Source of the DNA: Chthoniobacterales bacterium
GTDB lineage: Bacteria; Verrucomicrobiota; Verrucomicrobiia; Chthoniobacterales; UBA10450
DNA length: 64,000 bases
Reading direction: 5' to 3'
Assembly: GCA_050736975.1 (NCBI GenBank)
Contig: JBOHXL010000016.1
Location: 2,208-66,207 of the forward strand
This document shows positions 769-58,662 of the stretch, in pieces. Both the position numbers and the translations under genes were made by a program. Positions within the stretch are counted from its first letter, which is position 1, and each line of letters begins with the position of its first letter. A model generated the notes under the pieces. The model was given only the letters and a program-made list of their open reading frames with translations, was not told the DNA's origin and ran no database searches.

Positions 769-1386
769 ATGACGACAGCGAACAAGATCACGCTCATCCG
801 CATCCTGATGATCCCGGCCTTTGTCCTGATGGCGATCTATTACGGTGAAAGCATCAAGCGGGGGGAGCCGCTCGAATGGCAGCGTTACACCGCGATTGTC
901 ATTTTTCTCGTCGCGGCTGCGAGCGACGGACTCGATGGCTACATTGCGCGCCATTATAACCAAAAAAGCGCGCTCGGCGTGATCCTCGACCCGATCGCCG
1001 ACAAGGGCCTTCTCCTGAGCGCCATCATTACCCTGAGCATCAGCAACTGGAGCGATGTCGATCCGCAGTCCGGACAATTCCCGACCTGGTTCCCGGTGCT
1101 CGTGATCAGCCGGGACGCCGTGATCCTGATCGGCAGCGCGGTGCTGCATCTCTTGAACGGCAAAGTGCGGGTGCGGCCGGCCTGGACCGGCAAGGTCGCG
1201 ACCTTTCTCCAGATGACGGCGATTGCCTGGGTCATGCTGCAGGTCAGGTGGATTCCGCTCTTCTACGTCGTCGCAGCGGCGGGCTTTTTTACACTGGTCT
1301 CCGGCATTATTTACGTGGCGGACGGCTTTCGTCAGCTCGGGGCGCACGGCCAATCCAGCGCCGAGGGGGAGCAGCCGGGTCGTTAG
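769..1386 (+). CDS. pgsA: CDP-alcohol phosphatidyltransferase (CDP-diacylglycerol--glycerol-3-phosphate 3-phosphatidyltransferase-like)
   Basis: 205-aa multi-TM ORF with the DGxxGxxAR...G...DPxADK motif (DGLDGYIARHYNQKSALGVILDPIADK). Confidence 0.85.
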   Translation: MTTANKITLIRILMIPAFVLMAIYYGESIKRGEPLEWQRYTAIVIFLVAAASDGLDGYIARHYNQKSALGVILDPIADKGLLLSAIITLSISNWSDVDPQSGQFPTWFPVLVISRDAVILIGSAVLHLLNGKVRVRPAWTGKVATFLQMTAIAWVMLQVRWIPLFYVVAAAGFFTLVSGIIYVADGFRQLGAHGQSSAEGEQPGR

Positions 1387-1389
1387 GCA

Positions 1390-2760
1390 ATGGAAAATCG
1401 AAGCAGCCGCCAGGTTGCAATTGTGGGGCGGCCGAACGTGGGCAAGTCCGCCATTTTCAATCGGCTCGTTGGGCGCAACATCGCCATCGTGCACGATCAA
1501 CCCGGCATCACGCGCGACCGCATCTCCGGCCTGAGCCGGCGCGGCACGGAGCCGTTCACGGTCTGGGATACCGGCGGAATCGGCGGGCACGGCGAAACAG
1601 AATTGCTTCAGGAAGTGCGAAGCGCCGCCGACGCGGCCATGCGCGAGGCGGAGGTCATTCTCTTCGTCGTCGATGCGCAACAGGGTCTTACCCCGATCGA
1701 CCAGGAACTGGCGCGCCTCCTTCGTCGCTCGGCGCGCCCCGTTATTCTGGTCGTCAACAAAATCGATCACCCGAAGCATGAAGATCTCGCGGCAGAATTT
1801 ACCCGGCTTGGTTTCCCCGATGCCGTCAGCATCAGCGCGGCGCATGGTCTTGGCATAGACTCGTTAGTCGGGACGATCGAACAGCGCTTCCCTAAGTTAG
1901 AAAAAAGCGATCAGAAATCAGAAGTCAGCAATCCCGCACTCTCCCTCGCGATTGTGGGCCGGCCTAACGTTGGTAAGTCGTCGCTGGTCAACGCCATCGT
2001 GAGCGATCAGCGTGCGATCGTGAGCAGCCTGCCCGGCACAACGCGCGACGCGGTTGATATCGCCTGGCGACGCGGGTCGGACGAATTCGTGCTGATCGAT
2101 ACGGCTGGCATTCGTCCGCGCGGTAAACATTCCAGCTCGGTTGAAGTCTTCAGCGTGATGCGCTCCGAGCGCACCATCCGGCGGGCCGATCTTTGTCTGC
2201 TCGTGGTGGACGCCACGAGCGGAGTGACGGCGCAGGATAAGAAGATTGCCGCACTCATGCAGAAAGCGCACAAACCGTCGCTCGTGGTGGTTAACAAATG
2301 GGACCTTGTGAAACCCGAACGCGGCGCGAAGGAGACACTGGCGCAGTTACTCGATGAAACGCGCGAACGGCTTTTCTTTCTGCCCCATGCGCCGATCCTC
2401 GTTGCCTCCGCGCTCTCGGGCGAGAACGTCGATCGCCTTTTCAGCCTCATTCGCAAGATTCGACGCGCCTCGGGTGAGCGCCTCGGCACCGGGGTGCTGA
2501 ACCGGCTTTTGCGCGAGGCCTTCGCCGCCAATCCGCCGCCCATGGTGGCTAATCAGCGCCTGAAATTATTCTACGCCACCCAGGCGCGCGGCGAGATGGA
2601 ACGGGCGCTCGCCACCCCGGAGTTCGTCCTTTTCGTCAACAATCCGCATTTGTTAGGCGAGACCTACGCGCGCTATCTCGAAGCGCAGATTCGAGAGGCG
2701 CAGCCCTTCCTCGGTTTGCCGCTGATGCTGAATTTTCGTCCACGGAGCGAAACGTCGTAG
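1390..2760 (+). CDS. der: ribosome biogenesis GTPase Der (EngA)
   Basis: 456 aa with two tandem GTPase domains, each carrying a GRPNVGKS P-loop, plus DTAG and NKxD motifs and a KH-like C-terminus. Confidence 0.95.
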   Translation: MENRSSRQVAIVGRPNVGKSAIFNRLVGRNIAIVHDQPGITRDRISGLSRRGTEPFTVWDTGGIGGHGETELLQEVRSAADAAMREAEVILFVVDAQQGLTPIDQELARLLRRSARPVILVVNKIDHPKHEDLAAEFTRLGFPDAVSISAAHGLGIDSLVGTIEQRFPKLEKSDQKSEVSNPALSLAIVGRPNVGKSSLVNAIVSDQRAIVSSLPGTTRDAVDIAWRRGSDEFVLIDTAGIRPRGKHSSSVEVFSVMRSERTIRRADLCLLVVDATSGVTAQDKKIAALMQKAHKPSLVVVNKWDLVKPERGAKETLAQLLDETRERLFFLPHAPILVASALSGENVDRLFSLIRKIRRASGERLGTGVLNRLLREAFAANPPPMVANQRLKLFYATQARGEMERALATPEFVLFVNNPHLLGETYARYLEAQIREAQPFLGLPLMLNFRPRSETS

Positions 2761-2825: not shown

Positions 2826-2862
2826 GGGCAACTCTCGCGCTTCCCACAGGGAAGCGGCTATA
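2826..2862 (+). repeat. Partial (tail) copy of the same repeat family with a perfect hairpin CGCTTCCC-ACA-GGGAAGCG
   Basis: CTCTCGCGCTTCCCACAGGGAAGCGGCTATAA matches the tail CTCTCGCGTCGCCCACAGGGCGACGGCTAGAG of copy B, with compensated stem changes. It lies in a convergent gene gap and overlaps the stop codon of the 2858-3991 CDS. Confidence 0.6.
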
Positions 2863-3991
2863 ACGTCACCCAGGTGCGACGCCGCGCGCTTCGCTCAATC
2901 GCCTCGAGGACGCGCTGGTTGGCCAGGCCATCGGCGAAAGTTGGCGCCACGCTCTTGCGGGCGACGATTGCCCTAACGAAATCTGCAATTGTGTGCACGA
3001 AGCTGTGTTCGTAACCAATGAGATGGCCCGGCGGCCACCAGTGCTCGAGATAGGGATGCGTGCTTTCCGTGACGAGAATCTCGCGAAAGCCGCGTCGACC
3101 GGCGGTGTCCTCGGCGCGATAAAACTGGAGCCGGTTCATTTGTTCGAGATCGAAGACGAGCGAACCCCCGCTGCCGTTGATCTCGATCGTTAGGCCGTTC
3201 TTGCGCCCGGGCGCGAAGCGGGTCGCTTCCAAAGTGGCCAGCGCGCCAATGCGAAATCGGCCGAGCACGCAAACCGCGTCATCGACCGTCACCTTGCCGC
3301 GGCCGCTTCGCCTGCCCGCCCGGGGGCGCTGCTTCACGAACGTCTCGGTCATTGCACAAACCTCCCGGAATTCGCCCACCAGATAGCGGCCGAGATCGAC
3401 AATATGCGAGCCGAGATCGCCTAACGAACCGGAGCCGGCCGCGTCCGCGCGCAGACGCCAGACGAGTGGAAAGTGCGGGTCCGCGATCCAGTCCTGGGCG
3501 TAGCGCGCCCGATAGTGATAAAGCCGGTCGCCAAGTTCACCGCGTGCGATCATCTCCCGCGCCAGGGCGAGCGCTGGCACCCTGCGGTAATTGTGGCAAA
3601 CCATGTGCACGACCCGCGCCTTTCGCACCGCCCTGGTCATGCGTTCCGCTTCGCCCAGATCGCGCGCGAGCGGTTTCTCGCAAAGGATGGCCTTGCCGGC
3701 GGCGGCCGCGGCGATGGCGATCTCGGCGTGGGATTCGTTAGGGGTGCTGATGTCGACGACGTCGATCTGCGGGTCGTCCACCACCGCGCGCCAATTGGTC
3801 GCGCTCTTTTCCCAGCCGAGCGCGAGCGCGGCTTTACTTACGGCTCGCGGGTTGCGCCCGCAGAGCGTGCTCATTCGTATCTCGGCGGGAAGTTCAAAAA
3901 AGCGCGGCGCCTGCCGCCAGGCGTTGGAGTGGGCCCGGCCCATAAAGCCGTATCCGATTAATCCAACCCGGAGGGTGCGTCGCGATTTCAT
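2858..3991 (-). CDS. Gfo/Idh/MocA family NAD(P)-dependent oxidoreductase
   Basis: 377 aa with an N-terminal Rossmann motif (LRVGLIGYGFMGRAH) and the conserved EKP motif (AILCEKPLA). Confidence 0.85.
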   Translation of the reverse strand: MKSRRTLRVGLIGYGFMGRAHSNAWRQAPRFFELPAEIRMSTLCGRNPRAVSKAALALGWEKSATNWRAVVDDPQIDVVDISTPNESHAEIAIAAAAAGKAILCEKPLARDLGEAERMTRAVRKARVVHMVCHNYRRVPALALAREMIARGELGDRLYHYRARYAQDWIADPHFPLVWRLRADAAGSGSLGDLGSHIVDLGRYLVGEFREVCAMTETFVKQRPRAGRRSGRGKVTVDDAVCVLGRFRIGALATLEATRFAPGRKNGLTIEINGSGGSLVFDLEQMNRLQFYRAEDTAGRRGFREILVTESTHPYLEHWWPPGHLIGYEHSFVHTIADFVRAIVARKSVAPTFADGLANQRVLEAIERSARRRTWVTL

Positions 3992-4064: not shown

Positions 4065-5036
4065 TCAGAAGCGAAAAATATTCAGGAACGCGACTTCGAG
4101 CGCGAGCGCCTCCTGGATGTTGCGATCGAGATGCTGGCGCAGTTCTTCCAGCCGGCGAACGCGAGACAGAATCTCCAGAGTCGTCAGGCGCGCGGCCATC
4201 GCCTCCGTGCTGGTTCGCGCCTCCGGCAGCTCGCGAGTGGCGACGCCGCTGCTGGCCTTTAGGATATCGCCCCACCAGCGGAAGAGCGTTTCGATCAGCG
4301 TGGCCCGCTGATGCAGGTAAAGGCTTTCCGTCAGGGCCTTGTAATGGTCTTCCCGGGTTTCGAGCCACTCGCCGTCGGTCGTATTCTTGTAGCGGGTCTC
4401 TTCGCGTTTCAAGGCCGCGTCATTTTCCTCCTGGATCGCCAGCCGCATTTGCCCGAGCAGGTGCTGAAAGCCCTGCACCATCCGATAGGCGTCGTGCACG
4501 CCGGCGCCGGCGTCGGGGTTGAGACGGTTGAGCAACGCGACCAGCTCCCTTTGCTCGGCCGAGACTTTGGCGTCGTTAGGCGGGGCGAGCGGAATCTCAA
4601 TGCAGCGCGAGAGAATCGTTTCCGGCAACACTTCCGGAATCGAGCTGAGCAAAAGAAGAAGCGAATTGTTAGGCGGTTCCTCCATCGTTTTCAGAAAGGC
4701 GTTCGCGGCCGGCGGCCCCATCCGATCCGCGTCGGAGATGATCGCCACTTTGCGGCGGCCATCGCTCGCCTGCATCTGGAGCGCATGCTCAAGGTCGCGT
4801 AGTTGATCGATGCCGATGCGGCGAGATTTCGATTCCGGCGCCGCCAGGTAAACGTCCGGCGCCTTCCCAGAGAAAATTTCATCAGCCGGCGCGCCGTTCA
4901 CGAGCTGCGTCACGGCCGCCGCGAGGGCGCGCTTGCCGCTGCCATTTGCGCCCGTGATGAGATAGGCGTGAGCGAGACGGCGGCGTTGCTGCGCGTTGCG
5001 AAGATAATCAAACGCGACCTGCGGAGTGAAAGCCAC
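4065..5036 (-). CDS. holB: DNA polymerase III subunit delta'
   Basis: 323 aa with an AAA+ clamp-loader N-terminus (RLAHAYLITGANGSGKRALA), SRC motif (ILSRCIEI) and KTMEEPP. Confidence 0.8.
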   Translation of the reverse strand: MAFTPQVAFDYLRNAQQRRRLAHAYLITGANGSGKRALAAAVTQLVNGAPADEIFSGKAPDVYLAAPESKSRRIGIDQLRDLEHALQMQASDGRRKVAIISDADRMGPPAANAFLKTMEEPPNNSLLLLLSSIPEVLPETILSRCIEIPLAPPNDAKVSAEQRELVALLNRLNPDAGAGVHDAYRMVQGFQHLLGQMRLAIQEENDAALKREETRYKNTTDGEWLETREDHYKALTESLYLHQRATLIETLFRWWGDILKASSGVATRELPEARTSTEAMAARLTTLEILSRVRRLEELRQHLDRNIQEALALEVAFLNIFRF

Positions 5037-5039: not shown

Positions 5040-5723
5040 TCAGGATTGCCGGCTGCGTTCTCGCGCCGGAATCATTTGCGCGAGCTGGCCGAAACGCATC
5101 GTCAGCACGTCCCAGATTTCCTGCTCGATCTCCTGGATCGACCTGCTCGCATCGATCACCCGGACGCGGTAAGGCTCGCGCGCCGCCAGTTCGCGATACG
5201 CTTCACAAACCGCCTGGTAGAAATCGAGCGGTTCCTGTTCCATGCGATCGATCCCGGCGGCCGGGCGCACCCGGCGCATCTGGCGGGCGCGGGCCGTTTC
5301 GGTATCGATGTCGAGAAGAAAGGTGAGATCCGGCCAGCAATTGCCCACCGCAAACATCGTGAGGTGGGCCACCATTTCCTGATCGAGGCGGCGCGCGACG
5401 CCCTGATAAACCGTCGTGGAATCAGCGAAGCGATCGGAGAGCACAACCGTGCCGCGATCGAGCGCGGGTTGAATCACTTCCCTAACGAGCTGGCTGCGGC
5501 TGGCTGCGAAGAGAAGCAGCTCCGTTTCCGGCGTCATCGACACGCTCTCGGGCGCGAATTGCAGGAGGTGCCGGATTTTTTCACCGATCGGCGTCCCGCC
5601 CGGTTCGCGTGTCACGAGCAAGGGCACGCCGGCTTTCGTCAGGCGCGCGGCCAGCAGACCGACCTGGGTCGATTTCCCGCAACCCTCCGAACCCTCAAAA
5701 GTGATGAACGGCAGGCGCGGCAT
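5040..5723 (-). CDS. tmk: dTMP (thymidylate) kinase
   Basis: P-loop FITFEGSEGCGKSTQ and DRF motif. Start is set at the internal ATG (MPRLPF...) because the longer ORF extension to 5816 runs into the intergenic repeat at 5773-5868. Confidence 0.9.
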   Translation of the reverse strand: MPRLPFITFEGSEGCGKSTQVGLLAARLTKAGVPLLVTREPGGTPIGEKIRHLLQFAPESVSMTPETELLLFAASRSQLVREVIQPALDRGTVVLSDRFADSTTVYQGVARRLDQEMVAHLTMFAVGNCWPDLTFLLDIDTETARARQMRRVRPAAGIDRMEQEPLDFYQAVCEAYRELAAREPYRVRVIDASRSIQEIEQEIWDVLTMRFGQLAQMIPARERSRQS

Positions 5724-5772
5724 GGGCGGATGTTGACGCAGGTCGCAGGGGTTGTCGAACATTACCGCGCGA

Positions 5773-5868
5773 CCTGTAACCGTGGCCCGGTGGGCGACGC
5801 GAGAGCGGCTGCCCAATTGTCAGTTGCCGTGCGCAGACCCACGCTTCGCACAGCGAAGCGGCTACAGC
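5773..5868 (-). repeat. MITE/REP-like intergenic repeat, copy A (inverted relative to copies B-D)
   Basis: Its reverse complement aligns along almost its full length with 11651-11744 (CTGTAGCCGCTTCGCTGTGCGAAGCGTGGGTCTGCGC...GCCGCTCTCGCGTCGCCCAC.GGGC.ACGG.TACAG). Confidence 0.8.
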
Positions 5869-5890: not shown

Positions 5891-6967
5891 CTAGTGTTTC
5901 GATCGTTCGAGCAACTTGACCAGCTGATCCTTCCACAACGCCGCCATGGTATGGCTGCCGTGGCCGCGTGTCTTGTCGCTGAAGGGGATGAGGAAGGCTC
6001 GCCCGTTCGGCACGCGCTTGATCTCGCGCTCGAGAATGCCGAGCTCCGGCGGATTGATCAGGTCGTCGACGGAATTGATCGCGAGGAGCGGCGCCCGGAT
6101 CTTTTCCAGGTTCGGTCCGGGATCGTAATCGCGCGAGGACGCGACCGCGTAGAGGACATCATTGGCGTCCGCGGTCTTGACGTAGTGGTTAACGAACGTG
6201 TCCAGCACTTGGTCGGTTTTCGCCAGGGTGGGCGCTTCCTTCTGACGGAGCACGGGATTGCTACTCATGAACCAGAGCATCTCGGCGGCGGTGCGCAGGC
6301 TGGGGGGTTGTGCTTTGTAGTCGCCGCTCTCCCAGGCTGGGTCGGCGCGGATCGCGTCGATGATAATGCGACGCCAGACGCGGTTGCGGCCGGAGATTTG
6401 CGTCGGTAAACACGCCAGCGGCATCAGTGCATCCATGAAATCAGGATGAATTTCGCCCCAAAGCCAGGTGTGCATGCCGCCCATCGAGGTACCCATGACC
6501 AGACGCGCGTGGTTTATGGCCAGGCCCTCGGTCAGCAGGCGATACTCCGCTTCGACCATGTCGCGATAACCGTAGTTTGGGAATCTCGCATGCATTCCGT
6601 CGCTCGGTTTGCTCGATTTGCCGTGACCGATGTCGTCCGGCAGAACAATGAAAAACTTCGCCGCATCGAGCGGCTGGCCCGGCCCGAAGAGTTCGCCGGC
6701 AAACTCCGGCCGGATAAACTGTGCGCCGCTTCCGGTCGTCCCGTGCATGATGAGGACGGCGTTTTGCGCGACACCTTTCGCGTCCTTCACCGGCTTGCCG
6801 AGGGTGCGGTAATGCAGTCGCAACTCCGGCATCGTTTCCCCGGAAGTAAACTTGAAGTCGTGCGCGATAAAATCGCCTTCGTTAGGCGCGGGATAATCGG
6901 CGGCGCGCGCCAGCGCACTCAGGCCAATGGAAAGGAACAGAACCGCGGTGCGGGAAAAAGTGTTCAT
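5891..6967 (-). CDS. secreted alpha/beta-fold hydrolase
   Basis: Signal peptide MNTFSRTAVLFLSIGLSALARA and nucleophile elbow GTSMGG. The length and pattern fit an alpha/beta hydrolase (MetX-like fold). An upstream ATG at 7012 is also possible. Confidence 0.75.
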   Translation of the reverse strand: MNTFSRTAVLFLSIGLSALARAADYPAPNEGDFIAHDFKFTSGETMPELRLHYRTLGKPVKDAKGVAQNAVLIMHGTTGSGAQFIRPEFAGELFGPGQPLDAAKFFIVLPDDIGHGKSSKPSDGMHARFPNYGYRDMVEAEYRLLTEGLAINHARLVMGTSMGGMHTWLWGEIHPDFMDALMPLACLPTQISGRNRVWRRIIIDAIRADPAWESGDYKAQPPSLRTAAEMLWFMSSNPVLRQKEAPTLAKTDQVLDTFVNHYVKTADANDVLYAVASSRDYDPGPNLEKIRAPLLAINSVDDLINPPELGILEREIKRVPNGRAFLIPFSDKTRGHGSHTMAALWKDQLVKLLERSKH

Positions 6968-7166
6968 CGACGGAAGAATACGCGGTTGCGAGCCAGGATA
7001 AAGGCGCGCCATAGCCTAACGATTCGGTGTTTCCCGGGTTAAGGCGGCGTGGTCACGACCCCAGCCGAACGAAGCGCTCGCTAGGCTCTGCGACCGCGCC
7101 TGTTGCCACGTCGCCCGGATGGGGAGTTGTTCTTAGCCCTGCCGCGATGTTAATGATTGTCCCGGG

Positions 7167-7568
7167 ATGAAAAACTACTGGCTCGTGAAACAGGAACCGG
7201 AAGCTTATTCATGGGACGATTTTGCGCGCGACGGCGGGACGAAGTGGACCGGAGTGCGGAATTTTCAGGCCCGCAATAATCTTCGCGCGATGCGCAAAGG
7301 CGACGCCGTTTTGTTTTATCACAGTGTGAGCGACAAGGCCGTCATCGGCGTCGCCCAGGTGACACGCGAGGCGTTTCCCGACCCGACGGCGAAGGAAGGC
7401 GACTGGAGCGCGGTTGAGTTAACGCCGGTCAAGGCGTTGAAAAAACCGGTCACGCTCGAGCAAATCAAAGCGGAGCCGAAATTACGCGAGATTGCCCTGC
7501 TCCGGAATTCGCGCCTCTCCGTCCAGCCGTTAGGCAAAGCCGAGTTCGAGTTGATCTGCCGCCTCTAG
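7167..7568 (+). CDS. EVE (PUA-like) domain protein
   Basis: 133 aa with MKNYWLVKQEPEAYSWDDF...GVRNFQARNNLRAMRKGDAVLFYHS, typical of the EVE/thymocyte nuclear protein 1-like family. Confidence 0.8.
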   Translation: MKNYWLVKQEPEAYSWDDFARDGGTKWTGVRNFQARNNLRAMRKGDAVLFYHSVSDKAVIGVAQVTREAFPDPTAKEGDWSAVELTPVKALKKPVTLEQIKAEPKLREIALLRNSRLSVQPLGKAEFELICRL

Positions 7569-7630: not shown

Positions 7631-8401
7631 GTGCAGCGCGCGCTGGTAGTTTCGATTCACGATGTCGCTCCCTCGACCCGGGGAAACGTCGATAAAATTC
7701 TCGCGCAGCTAAGGCAACATCAGGTTGGCGCCTGCTCGCTTCTCGTCATTCCGGATTATCACCGGCAAGGACGATCGATGGCCGATCCCGATTTTTGTTC
7801 CTGGCTGCACGAGATGGAAGCGGGTGGACACGAGATCGTCATTCACGGATTTTTCCATGAGCGCGCCCGGCGCAGGCATGAAGTTGTGCGCGCGAAAATT
7901 CTGACCCGTTTTCACACCGCAGATGAGGGTGAATTTTTTGATCTCAGCTATCTCGACGCGCTTCAACGGATCCGTCAGGCCCGGCATGACTTTGAAGCGC
8001 ACGGTTTCCACCCTCACGGATTTATCGCGCCGGCCTGGCTGCTGGGCGCGGAGGCCGAGCGAGCCGCGATCGATGCCTGCATGGATTACACCACCACCAT
8101 TCGGACGATTCGCGACTTTGCCGAGGGCCGAATCTTTACCTCCCAATCGCTCGTCTACAGCGTGCGGAGCGCTTGGCGGCGGGTCATGAGCCTGGCGTGG
8201 AATCGATTGCTTTTCCGCCATCAAGCAAAGAATCCGTTGCTCCGCCTCGGCATCCACCCGCCGGATATCGGCTACCGCGCGATCTGGAACCAAATCACCA
8301 GGCTGATCGACGAAGCACTGCGCGATCGCCGCCCCATGACCTATGAAAGCTGGCTGGGCGAGAAATCGGCCGCCGGTCACGAGCCATCCGCCATCCAGTG
8401 A
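7631..8401 (+). CDS. DUF2334 / polysaccharide-deacetylase-like protein
   Basis: 256 aa with GTG start. The N-terminus ALVVSIHDVAP...LLVIPDYH and the HGFFH motif resemble the DUF2334 family. Its stop overlaps the start of the next gene. Confidence 0.65.
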   Translation: MQRALVVSIHDVAPSTRGNVDKILAQLRQHQVGACSLLVIPDYHRQGRSMADPDFCSWLHEMEAGGHEIVIHGFFHERARRRHEVVRAKILTRFHTADEGEFFDLSYLDALQRIRQARHDFEAHGFHPHGFIAPAWLLGAEAERAAIDACMDYTTTIRTIRDFAEGRIFTSQSLVYSVRSAWRRVMSLAWNRLLFRHQAKNPLLRLGIHPPDIGYRAIWNQITRLIDEALRDRRPMTYESWLGEKSAAGHEPSAIQ

Positions 8402-10809
8402 GTCGCTGCGATCTTCACCTTCATTCCAGGTTTAGCGATCGATCCGAAGATTGGATCTTTCGGCGGTTCGATTTTCCCGACAGCTACTCCGATCCGGAGG
8501 AGTTGTACGCGCGGGCGAAGGCCGCCGGGATGAACTTCGTCACCATCACCGATCACGACACGATCAAGGGTTGCCGCGCCATTTTGTATTTGCCAGATAC
8601 TTTCGTCAGCGAGCAGGTTACAACGTATTTTCCGCAGGACCCATGCAAAATTAACCTGCTCGTCTGGGGGATTTCCGAGGTCCAACACGACGAGATCGTC
8701 CGGCTGCGCGACAACATTTTCGACCTTCAAACCTTCCTGCAAAACGAGTCGATCGCCCACGCCGTCGCGCACCCGCTCTACAGCATCAACGGCAAGCTCA
8801 CCACGTCGCACCTCGAGCGGCTTATCCTGCTCTTCCAGCATTTCGAGGGCGTCAACGGCTTGCGCGACGGGCTCCTCAGCGACCTCACCCGCCACATTCT
8901 CGCGCAGCTCACGCCAGAGAAGGTCGAGGCCTTCGTGGAACGCCATCAGATTGCGCCCACTCATCCCGAGCCGTGGAAGAAAATTCTCGTCGGCGGCTCA
9001 GACGATCACGGAGGCATCTTCGTAGGTTCTGCCTTTACCGAAACGCCGCCGGCCCGCTCGCCTAACGAGTTCCTGGAACATATCCGCGCTGGAGACTGCA
9101 CCGCGCAAGGGGAAGGGGGGACGCCGCTTGCTCTTTCGCACGGTTTCTACAACACCTTCTCGCGTTTTATCCAGGATCGCTTCACCGCGAAGCTCGGGCC
9201 GAGCGCCGGCCTGGTGGAAAAAATGTTCTCGCGTTTCATGGAAGGGCTCGACCCGACCGAGTTCACCCTCAAGGAAAAGGCGGGCTTTGTCGCGCAGGGT
9301 GTTCTCTCGGGTAAAATCTTTGAGTTCGCGAAGCCGGGCAATATCTCTCTTTGGCGCGAGCTTTCCGGCTACTTTGCGCAACCGGAAGTGAAAGCCCGCC
9401 TGGCTCGCGAAGTCGCCGATGTCGCCGAGCCGGAGCGCCGCACCTTCATCATGGCCAACGCCGCCTGCGAACAGCTCGCCTTTCGCTTCTTTGAAAAATT
9501 TGTGCAGCAGCTCAACGCTGGCAACATCATCGAAAGCATCCAGGCCCTGGCCAGCATCGCCCCTATTCTGGTCGTGCTCGCGCCCTATATCTATGCCTTT
9601 CACAGTCAGGCGCCGTCGCGCCGCTGGCTACGCGAAGTCTGCCGCGATTTTACGGGGGCGATCCCGAGCGCGCTGCAAAACGAAAAGCGCGCCTGGTTTA
9701 CCGACACCCTCGAGGACGTCAACGGCGTCTCTACCACCATCCGCAAAATGGCCGCCGAAGCGCGCGATGCCGGTGAAGAGTTGGTCGTCGTTACTTCGCG
9801 CAGCGAACTCACTCTCGACGGCCTGCCGATCAAGAACTTCAAACCGATCGGCGAATTTGAGCTGCCCGAGTACGAGCTGCAAAAACTGAGCTTCCCACCC
9901 ATCCTCCAGATGCTCGATTACATTCAGCGCGAAAACTTTTCCGAAATCATCATCAGCACGCCCGGACCGATCGGCCTGACCGCTCTCCTGGCCGGCAAGA
10001 TGCTCAACCTCGAGACGAGCGGCATCTATCACACCGATTTTCCGCAATACATCCGCATCCTGACGGAGGACAGTTTCCTCGAGAGCCTGGCCTGGAAATA
10101 CATGCATTGGTTTTACGGCCAGCTCGACACCATCTTCGTTAACTCCGAACAATACCGCCAAAGCTGGATCGATCGCGGGATCGAAGCCGCGAAACTCAAG
10201 ATCCTTCCTCGCGGACTCGACACGCGCCTCTTTACTCCCGGGCGGAGCGAACCCGGTTTCTGGAGGCAATTTGGCAGCGATGGAACCGGCGTGCGTCTTT
10301 TGTTCGTTGGGCGCGTGTCCAAAGAGAAGGATCTCGACATCCTGGTCCAGGCCTTTCGCAACCTTCGCCGGGAGAATGTCCCGGTGCAGTTATCGATCGT
10401 GGGTCACGGGCCCTACTCCGCCGCGCTGGCCGAAATGATGCCTCAGGCCTGCTATACCGGTTACCTTAACGGCACCGAGCTGGCCACGGCTTACGCCTCT
10501 TCCGATATCTTCGTTTTCCCGAGTACGACCGACACCTTCGGTAACGTGATTATCGAAGCCCAGGCCGCAGGTCTGCCCGTGATTGTCTCCGACGCCGGCG
10601 GGCCAAAGGAGTTGGTCAACGATGGAGTGAGCGGCATCATTACCAAGGCCCGCGATGTCGCCGGCTTCACCGCCGCGATCCGTCGGTTGGTCGAGAACGA
10701 AGAGCTACGCAGAGAGATGAGCGCAGCCGCCCGCCGCAGCGTCGCAGACCGGAGCTGGCCCAGCGCCTTCCGGAAATTCTGGGCCGCGACGGAAATCAGT
10801 GGAACTTGA
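8398..10809 (+). CDS. fusion protein: N-terminal PHP (polymerase/histidinol phosphatase) domain, central region, C-terminal GT4-type glycosyltransferase
   Basis: 803 aa. The N-terminus (CDLHLHSRFSDRS...VTITDHDT) shows PHP metal-binding motifs. The C-terminus (FVGRVSKEKDLDIL...FVFPSTTDTFGNVIIEAQAAGLPVIVSDAGGPKE) is a classic GT1/GT4 EX7E region. Confidence 0.8.
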   Translation: MSRCDLHLHSRFSDRSEDWIFRRFDFPDSYSDPEELYARAKAAGMNFVTITDHDTIKGCRAILYLPDTFVSEQVTTYFPQDPCKINLLVWGISEVQHDEIVRLRDNIFDLQTFLQNESIAHAVAHPLYSINGKLTTSHLERLILLFQHFEGVNGLRDGLLSDLTRHILAQLTPEKVEAFVERHQIAPTHPEPWKKILVGGSDDHGGIFVGSAFTETPPARSPNEFLEHIRAGDCTAQGEGGTPLALSHGFYNTFSRFIQDRFTAKLGPSAGLVEKMFSRFMEGLDPTEFTLKEKAGFVAQGVLSGKIFEFAKPGNISLWRELSGYFAQPEVKARLAREVADVAEPERRTFIMANAACEQLAFRFFEKFVQQLNAGNIIESIQALASIAPILVVLAPYIYAFHSQAPSRRWLREVCRDFTGAIPSALQNEKRAWFTDTLEDVNGVSTTIRKMAAEARDAGEELVVVTSRSELTLDGLPIKNFKPIGEFELPEYELQKLSFPPILQMLDYIQRENFSEIIISTPGPIGLTALLAGKMLNLETSGIYHTDFPQYIRILTEDSFLESLAWKYMHWFYGQLDTIFVNSEQYRQSWIDRGIEAAKLKILPRGLDTRLFTPGRSEPGFWRQFGSDGTGVRLLFVGRVSKEKDLDILVQAFRNLRRENVPVQLSIVGHGPYSAALAEMMPQACYTGYLNGTELATAYASSDIFVFPSTTDTFGNVIIEAQAAGLPVIVSDAGGPKELVNDGVSGIITKARDVAGFTAAIRRLVENEELRREMSAAARRSVADRSWPSAFRKFWAATEISGT

Positions 10810-10941: not shown

Positions 10942-11093
10942 CAAGACCTCAGAAGAGATTCCGAAGGACGTCTTAAATGGCCTTTCTCCCTCGGTCCACC
11001 GCCACGCTCGGGACTAAAGCAGCCGCGCTATCTCTAAGGGTCTAACGTTCGACCTGAGGGCACGCCCGCTCGTCGGGAGGTTAAATGCCACTT

Positions 11094-11651: not shown

Positions 11652-11795
11652 TGTAGCCGCTTCGCTGTGCGAAGCGTGGGTCTGCGCGCGGCAACCGGCA
11701 ACTGGGCAGCCGCTCTCGCGTCGCCCACAGGGCGACGGCTAGAGCACGCTGGAGTTTGCCGGACCAACGCAGTTCTCCGAGGATTCATAGCACAT
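11651..11795 (+). repeat. MITE/REP-like repeat copy B (core 11651-11744 plus shared tail)
   Basis: Starts CTGTAGCCGC, the core ends CGGCTAGAG, and it contains hairpins CGCTTCG-CTGTG-CGAAGCG and CGTCGCCC-ACA-GGGCGACG (11719-11737). The tail TTTGCCGG.CCAACGCAGTTCTCCGA..ATTCATA.CAC is shared with copy C. Confidence 0.85.
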
Positions 11796-12009: not shown

Positions 12010-12014
12010 GCCCC

Positions 12015-49156: not shown

Positions 49157-50254
49157 CTAGGAGCTGATGCGCATCGGCATCAGGACGTAGAGGAATGGGC
49201 TTTGTATTTTGATTACGCCCGGGCTCATCTCATCGATCAGGTCGAGAAAGATCTCGTCCTCGGTCAGATTGCGGAGCGGCGCCATGAGGAACTCGGGATT
49301 GAAAGCGATGGAAAATTCGCGGCCCTTGTAAGCGACTGGCAACGACTCCTTGGCCTCACCGACTTCCGGAGTGTTGGCGGTAATGTCGATATTGTTCTTG
49401 GAAAAGTTCAGCTTGATCGAATTCGACTTGTCGCTCGCGAGGAGCGAGACACGGCGCAAGGAGTTGAGAAACGTTTCCCGCTCCAGTGTCACCCGTTCTT
49501 TCATCTCGCCCGGGATGACTTGCTTGTAGTTGGGATAATTTCCTTCGATCAATTTCGAGACGAGGAGCGTATTGTTGAGATCGAATGCGATCTGTCCGCT
49601 GCCGACACTGACGCGCACCTCGCCCTCATCGGTCAGGAGGCGCTGCAATTCCGTCACCGCCTTGGTAGGCACGATAATATCGGCTTCGTGGCTGCGCGGA
49701 AATTCGAGATCGATATCGAGCATCGCGAGCCGGCGTCCGTCGGTCGCGACCAGGGTCAGTTTGTTGTCCTTGAAGCTAAAGAGAACGCCGTTCAGGACGT
49801 AGCGCGTCTCGTCAGTCGAGATGGCATAGGAGGTCTTGCGCAGACCGTCGCGCAAATCCTTCTGCGGGATGGTCAGGACCTTGGAATCGTCGAATTTTGG
49901 CAGGGGCGGAAACTCTTCCTCGGGCAAACCGAGAATCTTGAAAAAGCTTTGGCCGCTTCGAATCGAGGCGGCGTTTTTGCCATCGATATCGAACTGAATT
50001 TCACTCGAAGGCAGCTCGCGAATGATGCTGAAGAGGCGGCGTGCAGGGAGAGTGGTGGCGCCTTCTTTTTCAACCTCCGCTTCGAAACTGCCACGCACTC
50101 CGACGTCGAGGTCAGTCGTTGTCAGGCGGACTTCCTTGCCATTGGTTTGCAGAAGGACGTTGGAAAGAATCGGGAGGGTGGTGCGGGTACTGACAACGTT
50201 CTGAACCTGTTGCAGACACTCGAGCAGCTTTTCTTTCGTAACGCTAAATTTCAT
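49157..50254 (-). CDS. dnaN: DNA polymerase III beta sliding clamp
   Basis: 365 aa. MKFSVTKEKLLECLQQVQNVVSTRTTLPILSNVLL..., three-domain clamp pattern, directly downstream of dnaA. Confidence 0.95.
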   Translation of the reverse strand: MKFSVTKEKLLECLQQVQNVVSTRTTLPILSNVLLQTNGKEVRLTTTDLDVGVRGSFEAEVEKEGATTLPARRLFSIIRELPSSEIQFDIDGKNAASIRSGQSFFKILGLPEEEFPPLPKFDDSKVLTIPQKDLRDGLRKTSYAISTDETRYVLNGVLFSFKDNKLTLVATDGRRLAMLDIDLEFPRSHEADIIVPTKAVTELQRLLTDEGEVRVSVGSGQIAFDLNNTLLVSKLIEGNYPNYKQVIPGEMKERVTLERETFLNSLRRVSLLASDKSNSIKLNFSKNNIDITANTPEVGEAKESLPVAYKGREFSIAFNPEFLMAPLRNLTEDEIFLDLIDEMSPGVIKIQSPFLYVLMPMRISS

Positions 50255-50326: not shown

Positions 50327-51679
50327 TCAGCGTTGCAGCGCGCTGTCGATGAATGAGATGGTCTGCCGGATCTTGTCCTGCTCTTTCATCCGCTTTTTCA
50401 CCTGCTTGCAGGCGTGCAGGACCGTGCCGTGGTCGCGTCCGCCGAAGGCTTCGCCGATTTCGTTCAGAGAAGCCTTCGTTAGTTCGCGCGCCAGATACAT
50501 CGCGATCTGGCGCGGGAATGCGATGTTGGCCGGGCGGCGTTTGCTTGTCATGTCGGCGAGCCGCACGTCGAAGTGCTCGGCGACGCGGCGCTGGATCTGA
50601 TCGATCGTGACGGCGCGGCGCGCTTCTTCCTGCAGGATGTCCTTGAGCAAATGCTCGACGACTTCGTGCGTCAGTTCCTTTCCGCTGAGGGAAGCAAACG
50701 ATGCCACGCGCATGAGCGCACCCTCCAGCCGGCGCACATTGGTCTTGATCCGCGTGGCGAGGAATTCGAAAATTTCGTCACGCAATTTAATGCGCAAAGT
50801 GTGCGCTTTTTTTCGCAGGATCGCGAGGCGCGTTTCGACGTCGGGCGGCTGTAACTCCGCCGTCAGCCCCCATTCGAAGCGCGAGACCAGGCGGTGCTCG
50901 AGGTTGGTGATCTCCGAGGCCGCGCGATCGCTCGAAAGAACGATTTGTTTATGGCCGTCGAAGAGGGTGTTGAAGGTATGGAAGAACTCTTCCTGGGAAC
51001 GCTCCTTGCCGCCCAGGAAATGAATGTCGTCGATCAGGAGCAGATCGGCCTGGCGGTAACGCTTGCGGAATTTGACCAGATTGTTGTGCTGGATCGCATC
51101 GATGAATTCGTTGATGAAGAGCTCGCTCGAGAGATACATCACACGGGTGTTCTTGCCCCGGGCCACGATGTATTGGCCGATCGCCTGCATGAGGTGCGTT
51201 TTGCCAAGGCCGACGCCGCCATAGATGAAAAGCGGGTTGTAGGTCTTGGCCGGCGATTGCGCGACAGCGAGGCTGGCGGCGTGCGCGATCTGATTGTTAG
51301 GCCCAACTACGAAGGATTCAAAGGTGTTGCGCGGATTCAGGCCCGAGGTGCTGCTGGCCCGCCCGGCCGCGGATTGGGTGGCGGCGATGTTTGGCTCCGG
51401 TGCAGCGGCATCGGAGCCGGCCGAGGTATCGATGGCACAGACGAATTTGACCGCGCGCGGACCATCCAGCACCGAGCTGATCGCGCTTTGCAAAGCAGGC
51501 ATGTGATTACTCTCGATCCAGAATTGATAGATGTTGTTCGGGACCAGAAGAGTGACTCCATCTGCGGTCACGCCAGTCAGTCTTACAGCAGAGAACCAGC
51601 GCTTGAAAGTGTCGGCGCTGACCTGCGGTTTTAAGGCGGCGGCCACCTTCGTCCAAAGTTGGGTACACTTCTCGTCCAT
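50327..51679 (-). CDS. dnaA: chromosomal replication initiator DnaA
   Basis: 450 aa with Walker A GGVGLGKTHL, Walker B LLLIDDIHF, and a domain IV HTH (FPRQIAMYLARELT...IGEAFGGRDHGTVLHA). Confidence 0.95.
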   Translation of the reverse strand: MDEKCTQLWTKVAAALKPQVSADTFKRWFSAVRLTGVTADGVTLLVPNNIYQFWIESNHMPALQSAISSVLDGPRAVKFVCAIDTSAGSDAAAPEPNIAATQSAAGRASSTSGLNPRNTFESFVVGPNNQIAHAASLAVAQSPAKTYNPLFIYGGVGLGKTHLMQAIGQYIVARGKNTRVMYLSSELFINEFIDAIQHNNLVKFRKRYRQADLLLIDDIHFLGGKERSQEEFFHTFNTLFDGHKQIVLSSDRAASEITNLEHRLVSRFEWGLTAELQPPDVETRLAILRKKAHTLRIKLRDEIFEFLATRIKTNVRRLEGALMRVASFASLSGKELTHEVVEHLLKDILQEEARRAVTIDQIQRRVAEHFDVRLADMTSKRRPANIAFPRQIAMYLARELTKASLNEIGEAFGGRDHGTVLHACKQVKKRMKEQDKIRQTISFIDSALQR

Positions 51680-51899: not shown

Positions 51900-52100
51900 A
51901 AATAATTCTGTTTTCTCTTCATACTCAGGACTCCGCTTTTAGGCCTTCATCTTATTCACATCTTGTTCACACCCGGTCTCTCTCGCTTCCGGCCTGCGGC
52001 TTGAGATTAGAAATCGGCTCGCGGCCACACAAGAAAAAATCGGAACTTTATTTTGTTTTTCCGCTCAAAAAATTCTTGACGAAAAAACGATTCGCGCAGG
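51900..52100. promoter_or_regulatory. candidate oriC segment: DnaA-box-like 9-mers plus an AT-rich unwinding region
   Basis: TTATTCACA (51952-51960) is one mismatch from TTATCCACA and TTGTTCACA (51963-51971) is two mismatches. An AT-rich tract CAAGAAAAAATCGGAACTTTATTTTGTTTTTCCGCTCAAAAAATTCTTGACGAAAAAAC lies at about 52029-52088, inside the 590-bp non-coding gap upstream of dnaA. Confidence 0.4.
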
Positions 52101-52269
52101 GTCGACCTTTTCGCAGGGAAAGGATCGCGCCGATCATGCAGCCTTCGTTAGGCAACCTTGCCCGCGGTCTTCCTGCGAGACGGTTCCGGCCAAAACTTTC
52201 CGATCCCGAAACGGCCCGAAAGTGTTCGCCAAGCCGAAGATTTGCCCGAAATTCGTGGACCGAAAAGGG

Positions 52270-52680
52270 ATGAGACCAAAAAAAAGAGAGGGCCGAAAGG
52301 CGCTCGGACCGATCGCACTGTTCCTGATCTGTCCCGCGATTTTCTTGGCCGCCTGCGCCACGACGCCGCCACCACCTGTGACGCATGTGGTCTTGATCTG
52401 GCTGAAGCATCCGCACCGCGTTGCCGATCGCACGCAGCTCGTGCGCATGGCGCATTCCCTGCGCATGATCCCTGGGGTGCTCCAAGTGGAGGCCGGGGGA
52501 TCGATTCCGCCGCTCGGTCCGTCCGTGCATCACGATTTTGATCTTGGCGTGGTGGTCACGTTTCGGGATCGCAGCGCGCTGCAACGTTACGAGAAGGATC
52601 CGCGTCATCTCGAAGCGATGAGCCATTATCTCCGGCCGCTGGTGCGGCATTACGAAGTTTATAACCTGGTTGCTCGTTAG
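52270..52680 (+). CDS. Dabb (stress-responsive A/B barrel) domain lipoprotein
   Basis: Lipobox LFLICPAIFLAAC followed by VTHVVLIWLK...FDLGVVVTFRDRSALQRYEKDPRH. Start at ATG 52270. Confidence 0.75.
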   Translation: MRPKKREGRKALGPIALFLICPAIFLAACATTPPPPVTHVVLIWLKHPHRVADRTQLVRMAHSLRMIPGVLQVEAGGSIPPLGPSVHHDFDLGVVVTFRDRSALQRYEKDPRHLEAMSHYLRPLVRHYEVYNLVAR

Positions 52681-52686
52681 GCGGCG

Positions 52687-56099: not shown

Positions 56100-56981
56100 T
56101 CACCTCTTGCGGGGTGACAACCGGCGCAGCGTCATCTTCCGGGCGTGGTGAAAAAGGTATTGCTGGGCGTAGCCGCCGTGTTCACCGAAATATTGTGCCG
56201 CGAAGGCGCGCAGTTGGCCGGCGGTCATCCTGCGTCGGCGCGGGAAATATCGCTCCCGCAGGACCCGCTCAATCCAGACGTCAATCGGGAAGGCCCGCAA
56301 CCGTTCGTAGGCGAAGAGCATGACGCAGTTCGCCACCTTGCGGCCGACGCCCGGCAAAGCGCAGAGCTGCGCCCGCAATTCGTCGTCGGATAGATCGGCA
56401 AGTCGATCGAGATTTACTTTCCCGCTGCAAATCAGCTGCGCGGTGGCAAGAAGGTTCTTTGCCCGGTAACCGAGGGCACAATCGCGCAGCTCCTTTTCAT
56501 TCAAGGCGGCAATCCGCGCCGGGGATGGATAAATATAAACCGTCCGCTCACCTAACGAACGCGGCTGGCCGAAGCGCTGGCGCAGGGTTTGCGAAATCTG
56601 CCGGATGTGGGCGACCCGCTTCACGGAGGAAGTGATAAAGGTGGCGAGACACTCCCAGCGTGGCTGGCGCATAATGCGGAGTCCGCGACAAAACTCCGCC
56701 GCGCTTTGCATCACCGGGTCGTTAGGCAAAGCTGCGCAAATTTCCCTCAGCGGGTGATCGAGCGAAAAATATCGCGCCACGGATCCTGGGAGGGTGTGCG
56801 ATCCACACACCGGCGAAGGCGACTCGCCCTCGCGAACGTGCAACACGCTCCCTCGCTCCTCCACGTAAATCGCCCGCTCCCCAATCGCTCCCACGAACCC
56901 CGCGCCTGACGATTCCCAATGAAACGTTTGTCCGGAGTCAAGCGTAAGGCCGAGGTCAAAATCGGGCGCCGGGATTTCCAT
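56100..56981 (-). CDS. 8-oxoguanine DNA glycosylase / HhH-GPD family N-glycosylase-lyase
   Basis: LDSGQTFHW (OGG N-domain) and HhH-GPD LCALPGVGRKVANCVMLF...FPIDVW. Start set at the internal ATG (MEIPAPDF). Confidence 0.8.
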   Translation of the reverse strand: MEIPAPDFDLGLTLDSGQTFHWESSGAGFVGAIGERAIYVEERGSVLHVREGESPSPVCGSHTLPGSVARYFSLDHPLREICAALPNDPVMQSAAEFCRGLRIMRQPRWECLATFITSSVKRVAHIRQISQTLRQRFGQPRSLGERTVYIYPSPARIAALNEKELRDCALGYRAKNLLATAQLICSGKVNLDRLADLSDDELRAQLCALPGVGRKVANCVMLFAYERLRAFPIDVWIERVLRERYFPRRRRMTAGQLRAFAAQYFGEHGGYAQQYLFHHARKMTLRRLSPRKR

Positions 56982-57033
56982 TACCTGCACAATAGCATTT
57001 GCGCGCCGCGCGAATTCTGGCAGCAAACAACCA

Positions 57034-58662
57034 GTGGACCTGCGCCTGTTGATCGACTCCGGAGTCCTGCTCCTCTACTTTTTCATCATCATCTTCATCG
57101 GCCTCTACATGGGCCGGAAGGAGGACAACCTCGAAGACTTTGCGCTGGGCGGCCGGCGCATTCCCTGGTGGGCTGTGCTCGCTTCCATCATCGCGGCCGA
57201 AACCAGCGCCGGCACCTTTTTTGGCACGCCGGGGGAAGGCTTCGCGCTCCGCAATTACACTTATCTCCAGCTCGCGCTCGGCACCATTCTCGCCCGTATC
57301 CTCGTCAGCTACATCTTCATCAAACCCTATTACGACTACAAGGTCTTCTCGATCTACGAGTACCTGACCGCGCGTTTCGGGACGCGGACGAAGAACGCCG
57401 CCTCCGCTGTTTTCATGATCACGCGTCTGCTGGCCTCGGGCGCTCGGCTCTACGTCGGCGCGATCGCGCTCGCGCTCGCCTACGAAATGATCAGCGGGGT
57501 GCGGCCGAGCCCGAGTCAAACGCTCCAGATTTACGTCTTTTCCACGATCGCGATCGTGATCCTGACCGCGATTTACACAACTTTAGGCGGGATCAAGGCC
57601 GTGATCTGGACCGACTTCATCCAGGCTTCGATCATGTTCGGCAGCGCCCTGGTCGCCGTGGGCTTGCTCTACTTTTCCATCCCCGGCGGGTGGCATGAAA
57701 TCGTCGCGCGCACCGGCGGATTTCATCTGCACGATTTTCTCACCACCGGGCTCGATCCGGCGAAACACGGCTGGCAAAAAATCGTTGGCATGTTCGGGAT
57801 CGAATACACGATTTTTGCCGGTCTCTTTGGCGCCACTTTCATCACCATGGGAACGCACGGCACCGACCAGGACATGGTGCAACGAATGCTGACCGCGCCC
57901 GACGTGCGGCGGAGCCGGCGCTCGCTCATTGTCTCCGGCCTGGCCGATATTCCAATCGCCTTCACCTTCCTCAGCATCGGCCTGCTCCTCTGGGTCTACT
58001 ACCAGGCGCACCCGGATCCGACCCTGCCGAAAACGCCTAACGAGACCTTTTGTCATTTCATTCTTTACCAGATGCCGGTCGGTCTCCGTGGCCTGCTCAT
58101 TGCCGGCATCTTTGCCACCACCATGGGCTCGCTCAGCACGGCCTTGAACGCGCTCGCGACCAGCTTTACCCGCGATTGGTATCAGCCCTATGTCAATCCC
58201 GGGGCGAGCGAGAAACAAAGTCTGCGCGCCGTGCGCTGGGCGACGGTCGGCTTCGCCATCCTCATGATCGTGGTCGCCTCCGCCACCTCCTATTGCGTGA
58301 TCGTCCTGCCTAACGTCCGCATCATCCCGATCGCGCTCGGTATCTTTGGTTATACCTATGGCTCGTTGCTGGGCATTTTCTTCTGCGGCATGCTGACGAA
58401 ACGCCGCGGAAGCGACCGGGCCAACCCGCTCGCCATGATCCTGGGTTTCCTCTTCGTCGCCCTGATCAGCAATCTGCCTAACGAGATTGCGCGTATCTTC
58501 GGGACGAAACTTTACGTCCCGCCAGCCTGGCTCCCGATCATGGAATTCCCCTGGTGGATCTGCTTTGGGACGATCGTCACTTTTCTGGTCGCGATCTTGT
58601 TTCGGACAAGCGAAGCGCAACTGGCCGGGAACCGCCGGGACGCCACCGCCTCGACGCGTTAG
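57034..58662 (+). CDS. sodium:solute symporter (SSS) family transporter
   Basis: 542 aa with GTG start, about 13 TM helices, and GGRRIPWWAVLASIIAAETSAGTFFGTPG typical of the SSF family. Confidence 0.85.
   Translation: MDLRLLIDSGVLLLYFFIIIFIGLYMGRKEDNLEDFALGGRRIPWWAVLASIIAAETSAGTFFGTPGEGFALRNYTYLQLALGTILARILVSYIFIKPYYDYKVFSIYEYLTARFGTRTKNAASAVFMITRLLASGARLYVGAIALALAYEMISGVRPSPSQTLQIYVFSTIAIVILTAIYTTLGGIKAVIWTDFIQASIMFGSALVAVGLLYFSIPGGWHEIVARTGGFHLHDFLTTGLDPAKHGWQKIVGMFGIEYTIFAGLFGATFITMGTHGTDQDMVQRMLTAPDVRRSRRSLIVSGLADIPIAFTFLSIGLLLWVYYQAHPDPTLPKTPNETFCHFILYQMPVGLRGLLIAGIFATTMGSLSTALNALATSFTRDWYQPYVNPGASEKQSLRAVRWATVGFAILMIVVASATSYCVIVLPNVRIIPIALGIFGYTYGSLLGIFFCGMLTKRRGSDRANPLAMILGFLFVALISNLPNEIARIFGTKLYVPPAWLPIMEFPWWICFGTIVTFLVAILFRTSEAQLAGNRRDATASTR

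Follow-up and report, generated by a model that had tools for sequence, protein, structure and literature searches.

A lineage-specific hyperabundant DNA word in soil Chthoniobacterales (Verrucomicrobiota), a possible tag for self-DNA recognition

The window analysed here is a 64,000-nucleotide stretch of a Chthoniobacterales bacterium (phylum Verrucomicrobiota; GenBank assembly GCA_050736975.1, contig JBOHXL010000016.1, positions 2,208 to 66,207 of the forward strand), and our subject is a short DNA word, GCCTAACGA, that recurs through its genes. By Pfam, the window is chromosomal core DNA, with der/engA, holB, tmk, a PBP2-type transpeptidase, folD, def, glycosyltransferases, a MiaB-like radical-SAM enzyme, an OGG glycosylase, dnaN (49157-50254, minus strand) and dnaA (50327-51679, minus strand). 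The 540-bp AT-richer intergenic region upstream of dnaA carries the DnaA-box-like nonamers TTATTCACA and TTGTTCACA at 51952-51973 and is probably oriC or the dnaA promoter. A tRNA-Leu is the only Rfam or tRNA match in the window.

An exact search returned 39 copies of the octamer CCTAACGA (reverse complement TCGTTAGG), 22 on the plus and 17 on the minus strand, that is 0.61 per kb or about one copy per 1.6 kb. The first-pass annotation had listed 36 copies, all of which are real; it missed those at 2972 (+), 3187 (-) and 3420 (+), and the copy it placed at 56718 in fact lies at 56719. Likewise, its six sites with only the 7-mer core all exist, and a seventh, at 1963, had escaped it (the seven include 58657). 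Immediately 5' of the octamer, 28 copies have a G, 10 have a C and one has an A, giving the consensus S-CCTAACGA, of which GCCTAACGA, not a palindrome, is the commonest full 9-mer form. Since the alignment of the 39 copies shows no conservation outside these nine positions, we are dealing with a word and not with a repeat element.

The enrichment, proposed at the outset to exceed 20-fold, holds under every null model we applied. An order-3 Markov model predicts 1.45 occurrences of the octamer (27x) and 0.50 of the nonamer GCCTAACGA, which is found 28 times (56x); no other k-mer of the window is nearly as exceptional as these two. Dinucleotide-preserving shuffles (n=100) contained a mean of 0.80 octamers and at most 3. 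In a further null, run 500 times, synonymous codons were shuffled gene by gene so that neither the proteins nor the codon usage changed; the mean was 5.9 copies and the maximum 11, and most of the 5.9 are copies outside coding sequences (CDS), which stay fixed in every trial. Allowing up to one mismatch, the 9-mer has 73 matches against 11.8 expected (maximum 21 in the null). The enriched one-off variants are mostly transitions, with GCCTGACGA found 11 times against 1.3 expected, GCCCAACGA 5 times against 0.9 and GCCTAACAA 5 times against 0.3, the pattern to be expected if erosion of the word by mutation is balanced by some force that restores it.

Reading frames and CDS assignments were taken from heuristic gene calls, by which 13 copies are read as P-N-[DE], 7 as x-L-T-x, 7 as S-L-G and 5 as x-V-R, while 3 straddle a TAG stop and 4 lie outside called CDS. 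The four readings are exactly those frames that avoid the word's internal TAA and TAG. P-N-E is encoded, in the sense of the gene, at 3735-3742 (-, C flank) in the GFO/IDH/MocA oxidoreductase gene (2858-3991, -), at 6879-6886 (-) in an alpha/beta hydrolase gene (5891-7012, -), at 9061-9068 (+) in a GT4 glycosyltransferase gene (8398-10809, +), at 34543-34550 (-, C flank) in the PBP2-type transpeptidase gene (33567-35657, -), at 37869-37876 (+, C flank) and 38217-38224 (+) in a FAD-binding oxidoreductase gene (37227-38270, +), at 39864-39871 (-) in a DUF374 gene (39341-39991, -), at 48635-48642 (+) in a GT9 heptosyltransferase gene (47957-49096, +), and at 58036-58043 (+) and 58477-58484 (+), the last copy in the window, in a sodium:solute symporter gene (57034-58662, +). 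P-N-D is encoded, again in sense, at 4573-4580 (-) in holB, for DNA polymerase III delta' (4065-5036, -), at 23536-23543 (+, C flank) in a PATR-repeat open reading frame (ORF; 23518-25176, +) and at 56719-56726 (-) in the OGG-type DNA glycosylase gene (56100-57026, -).

The x-L-T-x copies comprise G-L-T-I at 3187-3194 (-), sense in the GFO/IDH/MocA gene and using the rare CTA codon; R-L-T-T at 32860-32867 (-), sense in a CbiX gene (32594-33610, -); S-L-T-I at 35177-35184 (-), sense in the transpeptidase gene; S-L-T-S at 35933-35940 (+) in a short ORF (35826-36143, +) whose call is uncertain; G-L-T-T at 41162-41169 (-), sense in an FGGY carbohydrate kinase gene (40743-42281, -); A-L-T-T at 47172-47179 (+, C flank), sense in the MiaB-like radical-SAM gene (46198-47658, +); and S-L-T-M at 49039-49046 (+), sense in the heptosyltransferase gene. 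Antisense copies give S-L-G at 3420-3427 (+) in the GFO/IDH/MocA gene, with the rare TTA codon, at 22665-22672 (+) in a cpYpsA-GT2 gene (21539-22732, -), at 44377-44384 (-) and 44791-44798 (-, C flank) in an aminotransferase gene (43381-44832, +), at 45651-45658 (+) and 45864-45871 (+) in a PNP/UDP phosphorylase gene (45236-46105, -), and at 56551-56558 (+), the sole copy with an A flank, in the glycosylase gene. Also antisense, the x-V-R copies are F-V-R at 2972-2979 (+, C flank) in the GFO/IDH/MocA gene, at 20780-20787 (+) in an amidohydrolase gene (19823-20896, -) and at 22379-22386 (+, C flank) in the cpYpsA-GT2 gene; V-V-R at 15305-15312 (+) in a DUF7544 gene (15233-16189, -); and L-V-R, with an AGG codon, at 5481-5488 (+, C flank) in the thymidylate kinase gene (5040-5816, -), whose orthologs without this copy have TCGTCAGG or TCGTCCGG instead.

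In three cases the reverse complement supplies a TAG stop (..CGT TAG G): at 1380-1387 (-), the 9-mer GCCTAACGA, for a CDP-alcohol phosphatidyltransferase ORF (769-1386, +); at 42688-42695 (-) for an ORF at 42272-42694 (+), an uncertain call overlapped by an alternative ORF at 42365-43510 (-); and at 52674-52681 (-) for an ORF at 52222-52680 (+). The 7-mer core does the same at 58657. We set aside a test of whether long ORFs tend to end in the word, since shadow ORFs, frequent in GC-rich DNA, confound it. Outside called CDS are the copies at 7015-7022 (+), intergenic and 3 bp upstream of the start of the hydrolase gene; at 39321-39328 (-), in the intergenic stretch that separates folD (38364-39245, -) from the DUF374 gene; at 43166-43173 (+, C flank), within the alternative ORF at 42365-43510 (-), which has no Pfam match; and at 52145-52152 (-), in the presumed oriC/dnaA promoter region.

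About 80-90% of the copies thus fall within CDS, 20 co-directional with transcription and 15 opposed, and 12% of the copies in the pooled relatives described below straddle a called gene boundary. Third codon positions have a GC content (GC3) of ~0.73, and the word nonetheless relies on rare codons: in the window it takes up 7 of 35 CTA, 7 of 55 TTA, 13 of 97 CCT and 5 of 81 AGG codons. The frames, the codon use and the codon-shuffled null rule out a recurrent peptide motif. A dispersed repeat of the repetitive extragenic palindromic (REP) or miniature inverted-repeat transposable element (MITE) type is ruled out too, as there is no information beyond the nine positions and most copies lie within CDS; the copies do not belong to one dispersed repeat or gene family.

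We then compared the window with its relatives. Searched with the Der protein, species-representative genomes gave matches in about 65 Verrucomicrobiota metagenome-assembled genomes (MAGs), mostly from soil and peat, which are at most 89% identical and labelled Chthoniobacterales, Spartobacteria or Verrucomicrobiae. CCTAACGA is the top octamer in nearly all of ~45 related MAG loci. Where the Der identity to the window reaches 77% or more, almost every locus has it in first place, at 4-17 copies per 10 kb, and the genomes of the crown clade described next each have 3-17 per 10 kb. In the pooled related loci (766 kb) the octamer occurs 525 times against 23.3 expected (~22x). It is the sole word of this kind there, since each of the 30 most enriched octamers either overlaps it or is a one-off variant. 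On a neighbour-joining tree of Der the motif-rich genomes form one crown clade, and their sister clade is patchy, with 0-7.5 copies per 10 kb. Even close relatives differ 4-fold in density. The word is essentially absent from deeper Verrucomicrobiota, including one Chthoniobacter sp. MAG, and from unrelated GC-matched genomes, where nothing approaching its frequency here was found. It is therefore clade-wide and missing from outgroups.

The word also extends beyond the neighbourhood of der, as metagenomes show. We scanned JGI/ENA contigs for two copies 30-60 bp apart, and among 120 contigs listed at least 56 are motif-dense, with a GC content of about 0.56-0.60. These carry 0.71 further copies per kb, a figure inflated by selection because the contigs were classed as dense by their extra copies. 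Overall, the word is present in MAG and metagenome records of many independent projects (palsa, SMAG, MFD, JGI Ga-contig).

In the sister clade an apparent CTAACGAG extension is weak. A recurring GGCCTAACGACC site is positionally conserved in L035, L037, L038, L039, L041, L043, L045 and L074 (for example at 14407 in L037), which are sister-clade loci plus one outgroup locus; it encodes the conserved vWA-domain peptide RPNDRIG and is thus explained by protein conservation, not by a DNA-level drive. We therefore rejected both as a sister-clade dialect. Two outgroup MAGs, L057 and L058 (Der 56% identical), have no GCCTAACGA and carry intergenic tandem heptamers, ATGACAA/ATGACAG, as inverted pairs (L057 1986-2795 and 4889-5068; L058 3774-3878, 7175-7292 and 10113-10183). 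What had looked like a second hyperabundant word in the outgroup loci L057-L060 is this other phenomenon, a lineage-specific repeat system of tandem ATGACAR heptamers in inverted intergenic arrays. Separately, a 21.5-kb locus of GC 0.70 from a MAG labelled Rickettsiales (L073) has ~30 copies of GACTGCGAC in 21 kb against ~1 expected, which may be another hyperabundant word or repeat.

Individual sites are conserved beyond the protein. In codon alignments of nine syntenic genes across relatives, shared motif columns hold the word in 20/20, 22/32, 20/33 and 16/20 genomes, and other sites are lineage-specific gains; the copies at 3420 and 3735 in the GFO/IDH/MocA gene occupy the same column in 20/20 and 16/20 orthologs, respectively. 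Genomes without the word at a shared column are usually one synonymous base off, with CCTGACGA, CCTCACGA or TCGTCAGG. Counting every ordered pair of genomes, 45.8% of motif octamers have an exact match at the same place in the ortholog, compared with 15.7% of control octamers, and where the encoded peptide is identical the values are 71.8% and 26.6%. A conservation test referenced to the window gave 0.52 vs 0.17 (P = 1e-4).

The first-pass annotation had placed the constraint on the DNA and not on a peptide, and the four frames, both orientations, the use of rare codons and the conserved synonymous positions bear this out. Taken together, the frame, codon, clade and site-conservation data rule out that the word is due to a peptide motif, to an RNA signal, to a mobile repeat, to a side effect of codon usage or to a sequencing artefact of a single platform. 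We conclude that a clade of soil Chthoniobacterales has in GCCTAACGA a hyperabundant genomic word specific to its lineage, that the word is kept by a force acting directly on the double-stranded DNA and neither on a protein or an RNA nor on a mobile repeat, and that it entered core chromosomal DNA via synonymous and conservative substitutions, against codon preference.

The copies show no replichore skew around the dnaA-linked origin, whose position comes from gene context alone, the GC skew of the window giving no independent confirmation (the minimum expected at the dnaA region was not seen). Left of this origin they are 19+/14- (58:42) and right of it 3+/3-; should the origin be somewhere else, the window as a whole gives 22/17. 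Spacing is roughly Poisson to slightly clustered (coefficient of variation, CV, 1.2). Regular spacing was accordingly rejected, the largest gap in the 64-kb window being 9.3 kb (P = 0.085).

Density follows base composition: by 2-kb bin it is 0-0.25 copies per kb in low-GC and about 0.9-1.0 in high-GC DNA (Spearman rho 0.36), a rise that runs counter to the slight trend that composition would predict for a word of 5 GC and 4 AT positions. The 5.5-kb low-GC tail bearing an IS1595-family transposase gene (63102-63986, minus strand, by Pfam), at 58.5-64 kb, has no copy. Taking composition as a proxy for islands, the word thins in the atypical DNA of the window. In a low-power scan of viral contigs, each of the 21 matches to motif pairs proved to be a chance pair or a tandem repeat, and no motif-dense contig turned up.

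The tail itself (58500-64000; GC 0.52-0.57, with the IS1595 transposase) is likely mobile or recently acquired. The segment 10800-14100 has atypical codon-position GC and no motif, and may be an insertion. Its ORFs at 11081-12070 have GC2 above GC1 and several hairpin repeats, and an agmatine/peptidyl-arginine deiminase gene follows at 12015-13106. The genes of this segment are unmatched in related loci, though these reach only ~10 kb past der (~12.7 kb); the downstream genes at 14733-16189 are present in five related loci.

A second enriched word of the window, CGGCTACA / CCCACAGGG, is separate from GCCTAACGA and owes its enrichment to a hairpin of ~30 nt, of which it is part. This REP-like intergenic hairpin has a consensus of about CGCGYYKCC-CACAGG-GMRRCGGCTACA, with a GC-rich stem, a CACAGG loop and a GCTACA tail. 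Its eight copies, at 2846, 5850, 11727, 11934, 23239 and 25260 (+) and at 11668 and 23173 (-), sometimes form facing pairs, and it looks REP- or terminator-like. Elsewhere, the conserved der-holB-tmk neighbourhood holds a gene for an EVE-domain protein (7167-7568). EVE domains read modified bases in other systems.

What might keep such a word in place? The likeness first suggested, on density and orientation, to DNA uptake sequences (DUS), uptake signal sequences (USS) and the cyanobacterial highly iterated palindrome HIP1 stands: the word occurs at 0.6 per kb without skew, is clade-wide and is thinner in compositionally atypical DNA. The reading we tentatively favour, while thinking it somewhat more apt to be wrong than right, is that the word works in the way of DUS/USS, as a tag by which self DNA is recognised for uptake and recombination. 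A surface or periplasmic DNA-binding part of the type IV pilus (T4P)/competence apparatus would prefer fragments that carry the word; conspecific DNA would then be imported and recombined more often, and word-bearing alleles would be over-transmitted by molecular drive, together with selection against loss. The outcome would be a ~25-50-fold enrichment through the core genome, in either orientation, with newly acquired DNA lacking the word. We give slightly less credence to the fuller claim that GCCTAACGA may be the first uptake or self-recognition sequence outside Proteobacteria, implying a T4P receptor unrelated to ComP, sequence-biased transformation in widespread soil Chthoniobacterales, and a word driven across dozens of species-level genomes.

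We favour uptake because the word is non-palindromic, has a density typical of DUS/USS, and is accompanied by PilT/PilU-family ATPases in motif-bearing relatives. These type IVa pilus ATPases were found in L002, L009 and L023 (TIGR01420, 355-426 bits against a curated NCBIfam cut-off of 319), a few kb from der: two adjacent copies each at L009 12174-14906 and L002 18642-21421, and one region at L023 7670-8974. A prepilin-type protein at L053 8073-8579 matches 'Verru_Chthon cassette protein D' weakly. The DUS of Neisseriaceae (AT-GCCGTCTGAA and its dialects) and the USS of Pasteurellaceae (AAGTGCGGT / ACAAGCGGT) are also short non-palindromic words, of 9-12 bp, at ~1 per 1-2 kb. Like GCCTAACGA, they occur in both orientations without replichore skew, are tolerated in several reading frames, have enriched one-off variants, and are common to a family-level clade and absent outside it; retraction ATPases of the type IV pilus occur in the present clade as well. 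A scarcity in atypical or mobile DNA may be a further likeness, given the fall in density in the low-GC bins. Our word differs from DUS and USS in being unrelated in sequence and in belonging to Verrucomicrobiota, not Proteobacteria.

Several results weigh against an uptake role. ComEC, DprA, ComEA and PilQ were not found in ~1.1 Mb of largely redundant clade DNA; E. coli queries for ComEC, DprA, PilQ, PilB, PilC and ComF matched only the PilT-family ATPases and the one prepilin there. No lineage dialects were detected among the relatives. In contrast to DUS/USS, there is no intergenic enrichment: about 8-10% of the window copies and 21% of the pooled copies are noncoding, in proportion to the non-coding DNA (20% of the sequence is uncalled). 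About half of DNA uptake enhancing sequences (DUES), by comparison, lie in terminators (bioRxiv 10.1101/2025.10.24.684340). Inverted pairs at most 60 bp apart account for 3 of 520 neighbouring pairs, a near-absence that rules out terminator hairpins. The pooled related loci have a strand ratio of 39:61 relative to der, at sites that are pseudo-replicated and not independent; this imbalance probably reflects local gene orientation, the neighbourhood being dominated by minus-strand genes. Finally, the positional conservation of the sites matches the signature of HIP1 equally well.

This last point leads to the strongest rival, a HIP1-like word with a chromosome-level role in nucleoid or domain organisation, or marked by a conserved orphan methyltransferase, and not a receptor site for uptake; such marking might in turn aid recombination or transfer of self DNA. 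For HIP1 strong positional conservation is reported, along with the lack of a gene-level function, and its function is not uptake specificity as such (PMC5861425). The 22-56x enrichment of our word lies within the 15-300x reported for HIP1 (PMC5861425), its sites are conserved between genomes both within and between ORFs, no peptide or RNA explanation is available, and it is spread proportionally over coding and non-coding DNA without association to terminators. On each of these counts it matches HIP1 better than DUS/USS. HIP1 (GCGATCGC) is likewise tens-fold hyperabundant and phylum- or clade-wide, sits mostly inside genes, is conserved beyond protein constraint without a peptide, RNA or expression explanation, and is lost or thinned in some lineages. 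On the other hand, GCCTAACGA is non-palindromic, unlike all described HIPs, which are tied to palindromic methyltransferase sites (PMC4390886), and its host is a heterotrophic soil verrucomicrobium. Moreover, no methyltransferase was found among the Pfam-scanned genes of the window, and the spacing there is not regular. Apart from the missing palindromy, the data fit a HIP1-like role equally well, and we consider this explanation possible, if rather unlikely.

Biased repair, gene conversion or mutation offers a neutral account, in which a Vsr-like process would turn near-cognates such as CCTGACGA into CCTAACGA and the word would have no function. A single transition at position 5 (G/A, or C/T on the other strand) indeed separates the word both from its commonest alternative at orthologous columns and from its commonest one-off variant, and the direction opposes codon preference, as a repair bias would allow. 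Yet constraint falls on all nine positions and not on one hotspot, density varies 4-fold in close relatives, and it drops in atypical DNA of the same genome, a drop that a uniform repair bias would eventually erase. Biases of the very short patch (VSP) type are also less than 2-fold on 4-5-mers, not 25-50-fold on a 9-mer. A purely neutral origin of this kind would hardly produce constraint at nine positions together with such an enrichment, and we judge it improbable.

Still more doubtful is a Chi-like recombination hotspot, or a polar sequence of the KOPS/AIMS (FtsK-orienting polar sequence/architecture imparting sequence) type, read by RecBCD/AddAB or FtsK. It would share with our word the over-representation of an 8-9-mer, or octamer-scale word, concentrated in core genes. 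Chi is co-oriented with replication in more than 70-75% of copies and KOPS in more than 80%. Here there is no such replication-linked co-orientation, either about the dnaA-dnaN origin or in the pooled loci (61%); the word is not G-rich, and both its density and its enrichment are far above typical values for 8-mer Chi, the enrichment roughly 5-10 times so. As for an artefact or trivial cause (a dispersed repeat, a MITE, a peptide motif, a side effect of codon usage or a polishing error at a methylated site), the sister-clade GGCCTAACGACC site does have a peptide explanation, but for the word itself the unconserved flanks, the four frames on both strands, a codon-shuffled null far under the observed count and its occurrence in records of many independent projects and sample series leave such a cause next to no chance.

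Full-text searches of the literature found no description of GCCTAACGA, nor of an uptake- or HIP-type word in Verrucomicrobia; raw matches to the word were only primer-type noise, none together with Verrucomicrobia, Chthoniobacter or Spartobacteria, and for Udaeobacter or Chthoniobacterales nothing was found on competence or on uptake sequences. Recent surveys still give DUES only for Neisseriaceae and Pasteurellaceae.

To our knowledge, hyperabundant words are mechanistically understood in only two proteobacterial families (DUS and USS), and not in the case of cyanobacterial HIP1. With an independent word from a third phylum, again not a palindrome, there is a new comparative system for the evolution of such words, in which uptake bias, selection, methylation and nucleoid structure can be weighed as candidate forces. 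It comes from an abundant uncultured soil group, one known solely through MAGs, for which many MAGs and long-read assemblies are available. In practice, the word is an inexpensive marker of the lineage, of use in binning and in spotting foreign DNA within genomes of the clade, and we suggest adding GCCTAACGA to constructs intended for transforming cultivated relatives. If the word is indeed a self-DNA tag for uptake, this soil lineage would be predicted to exchange DNA preferentially with its own kind.

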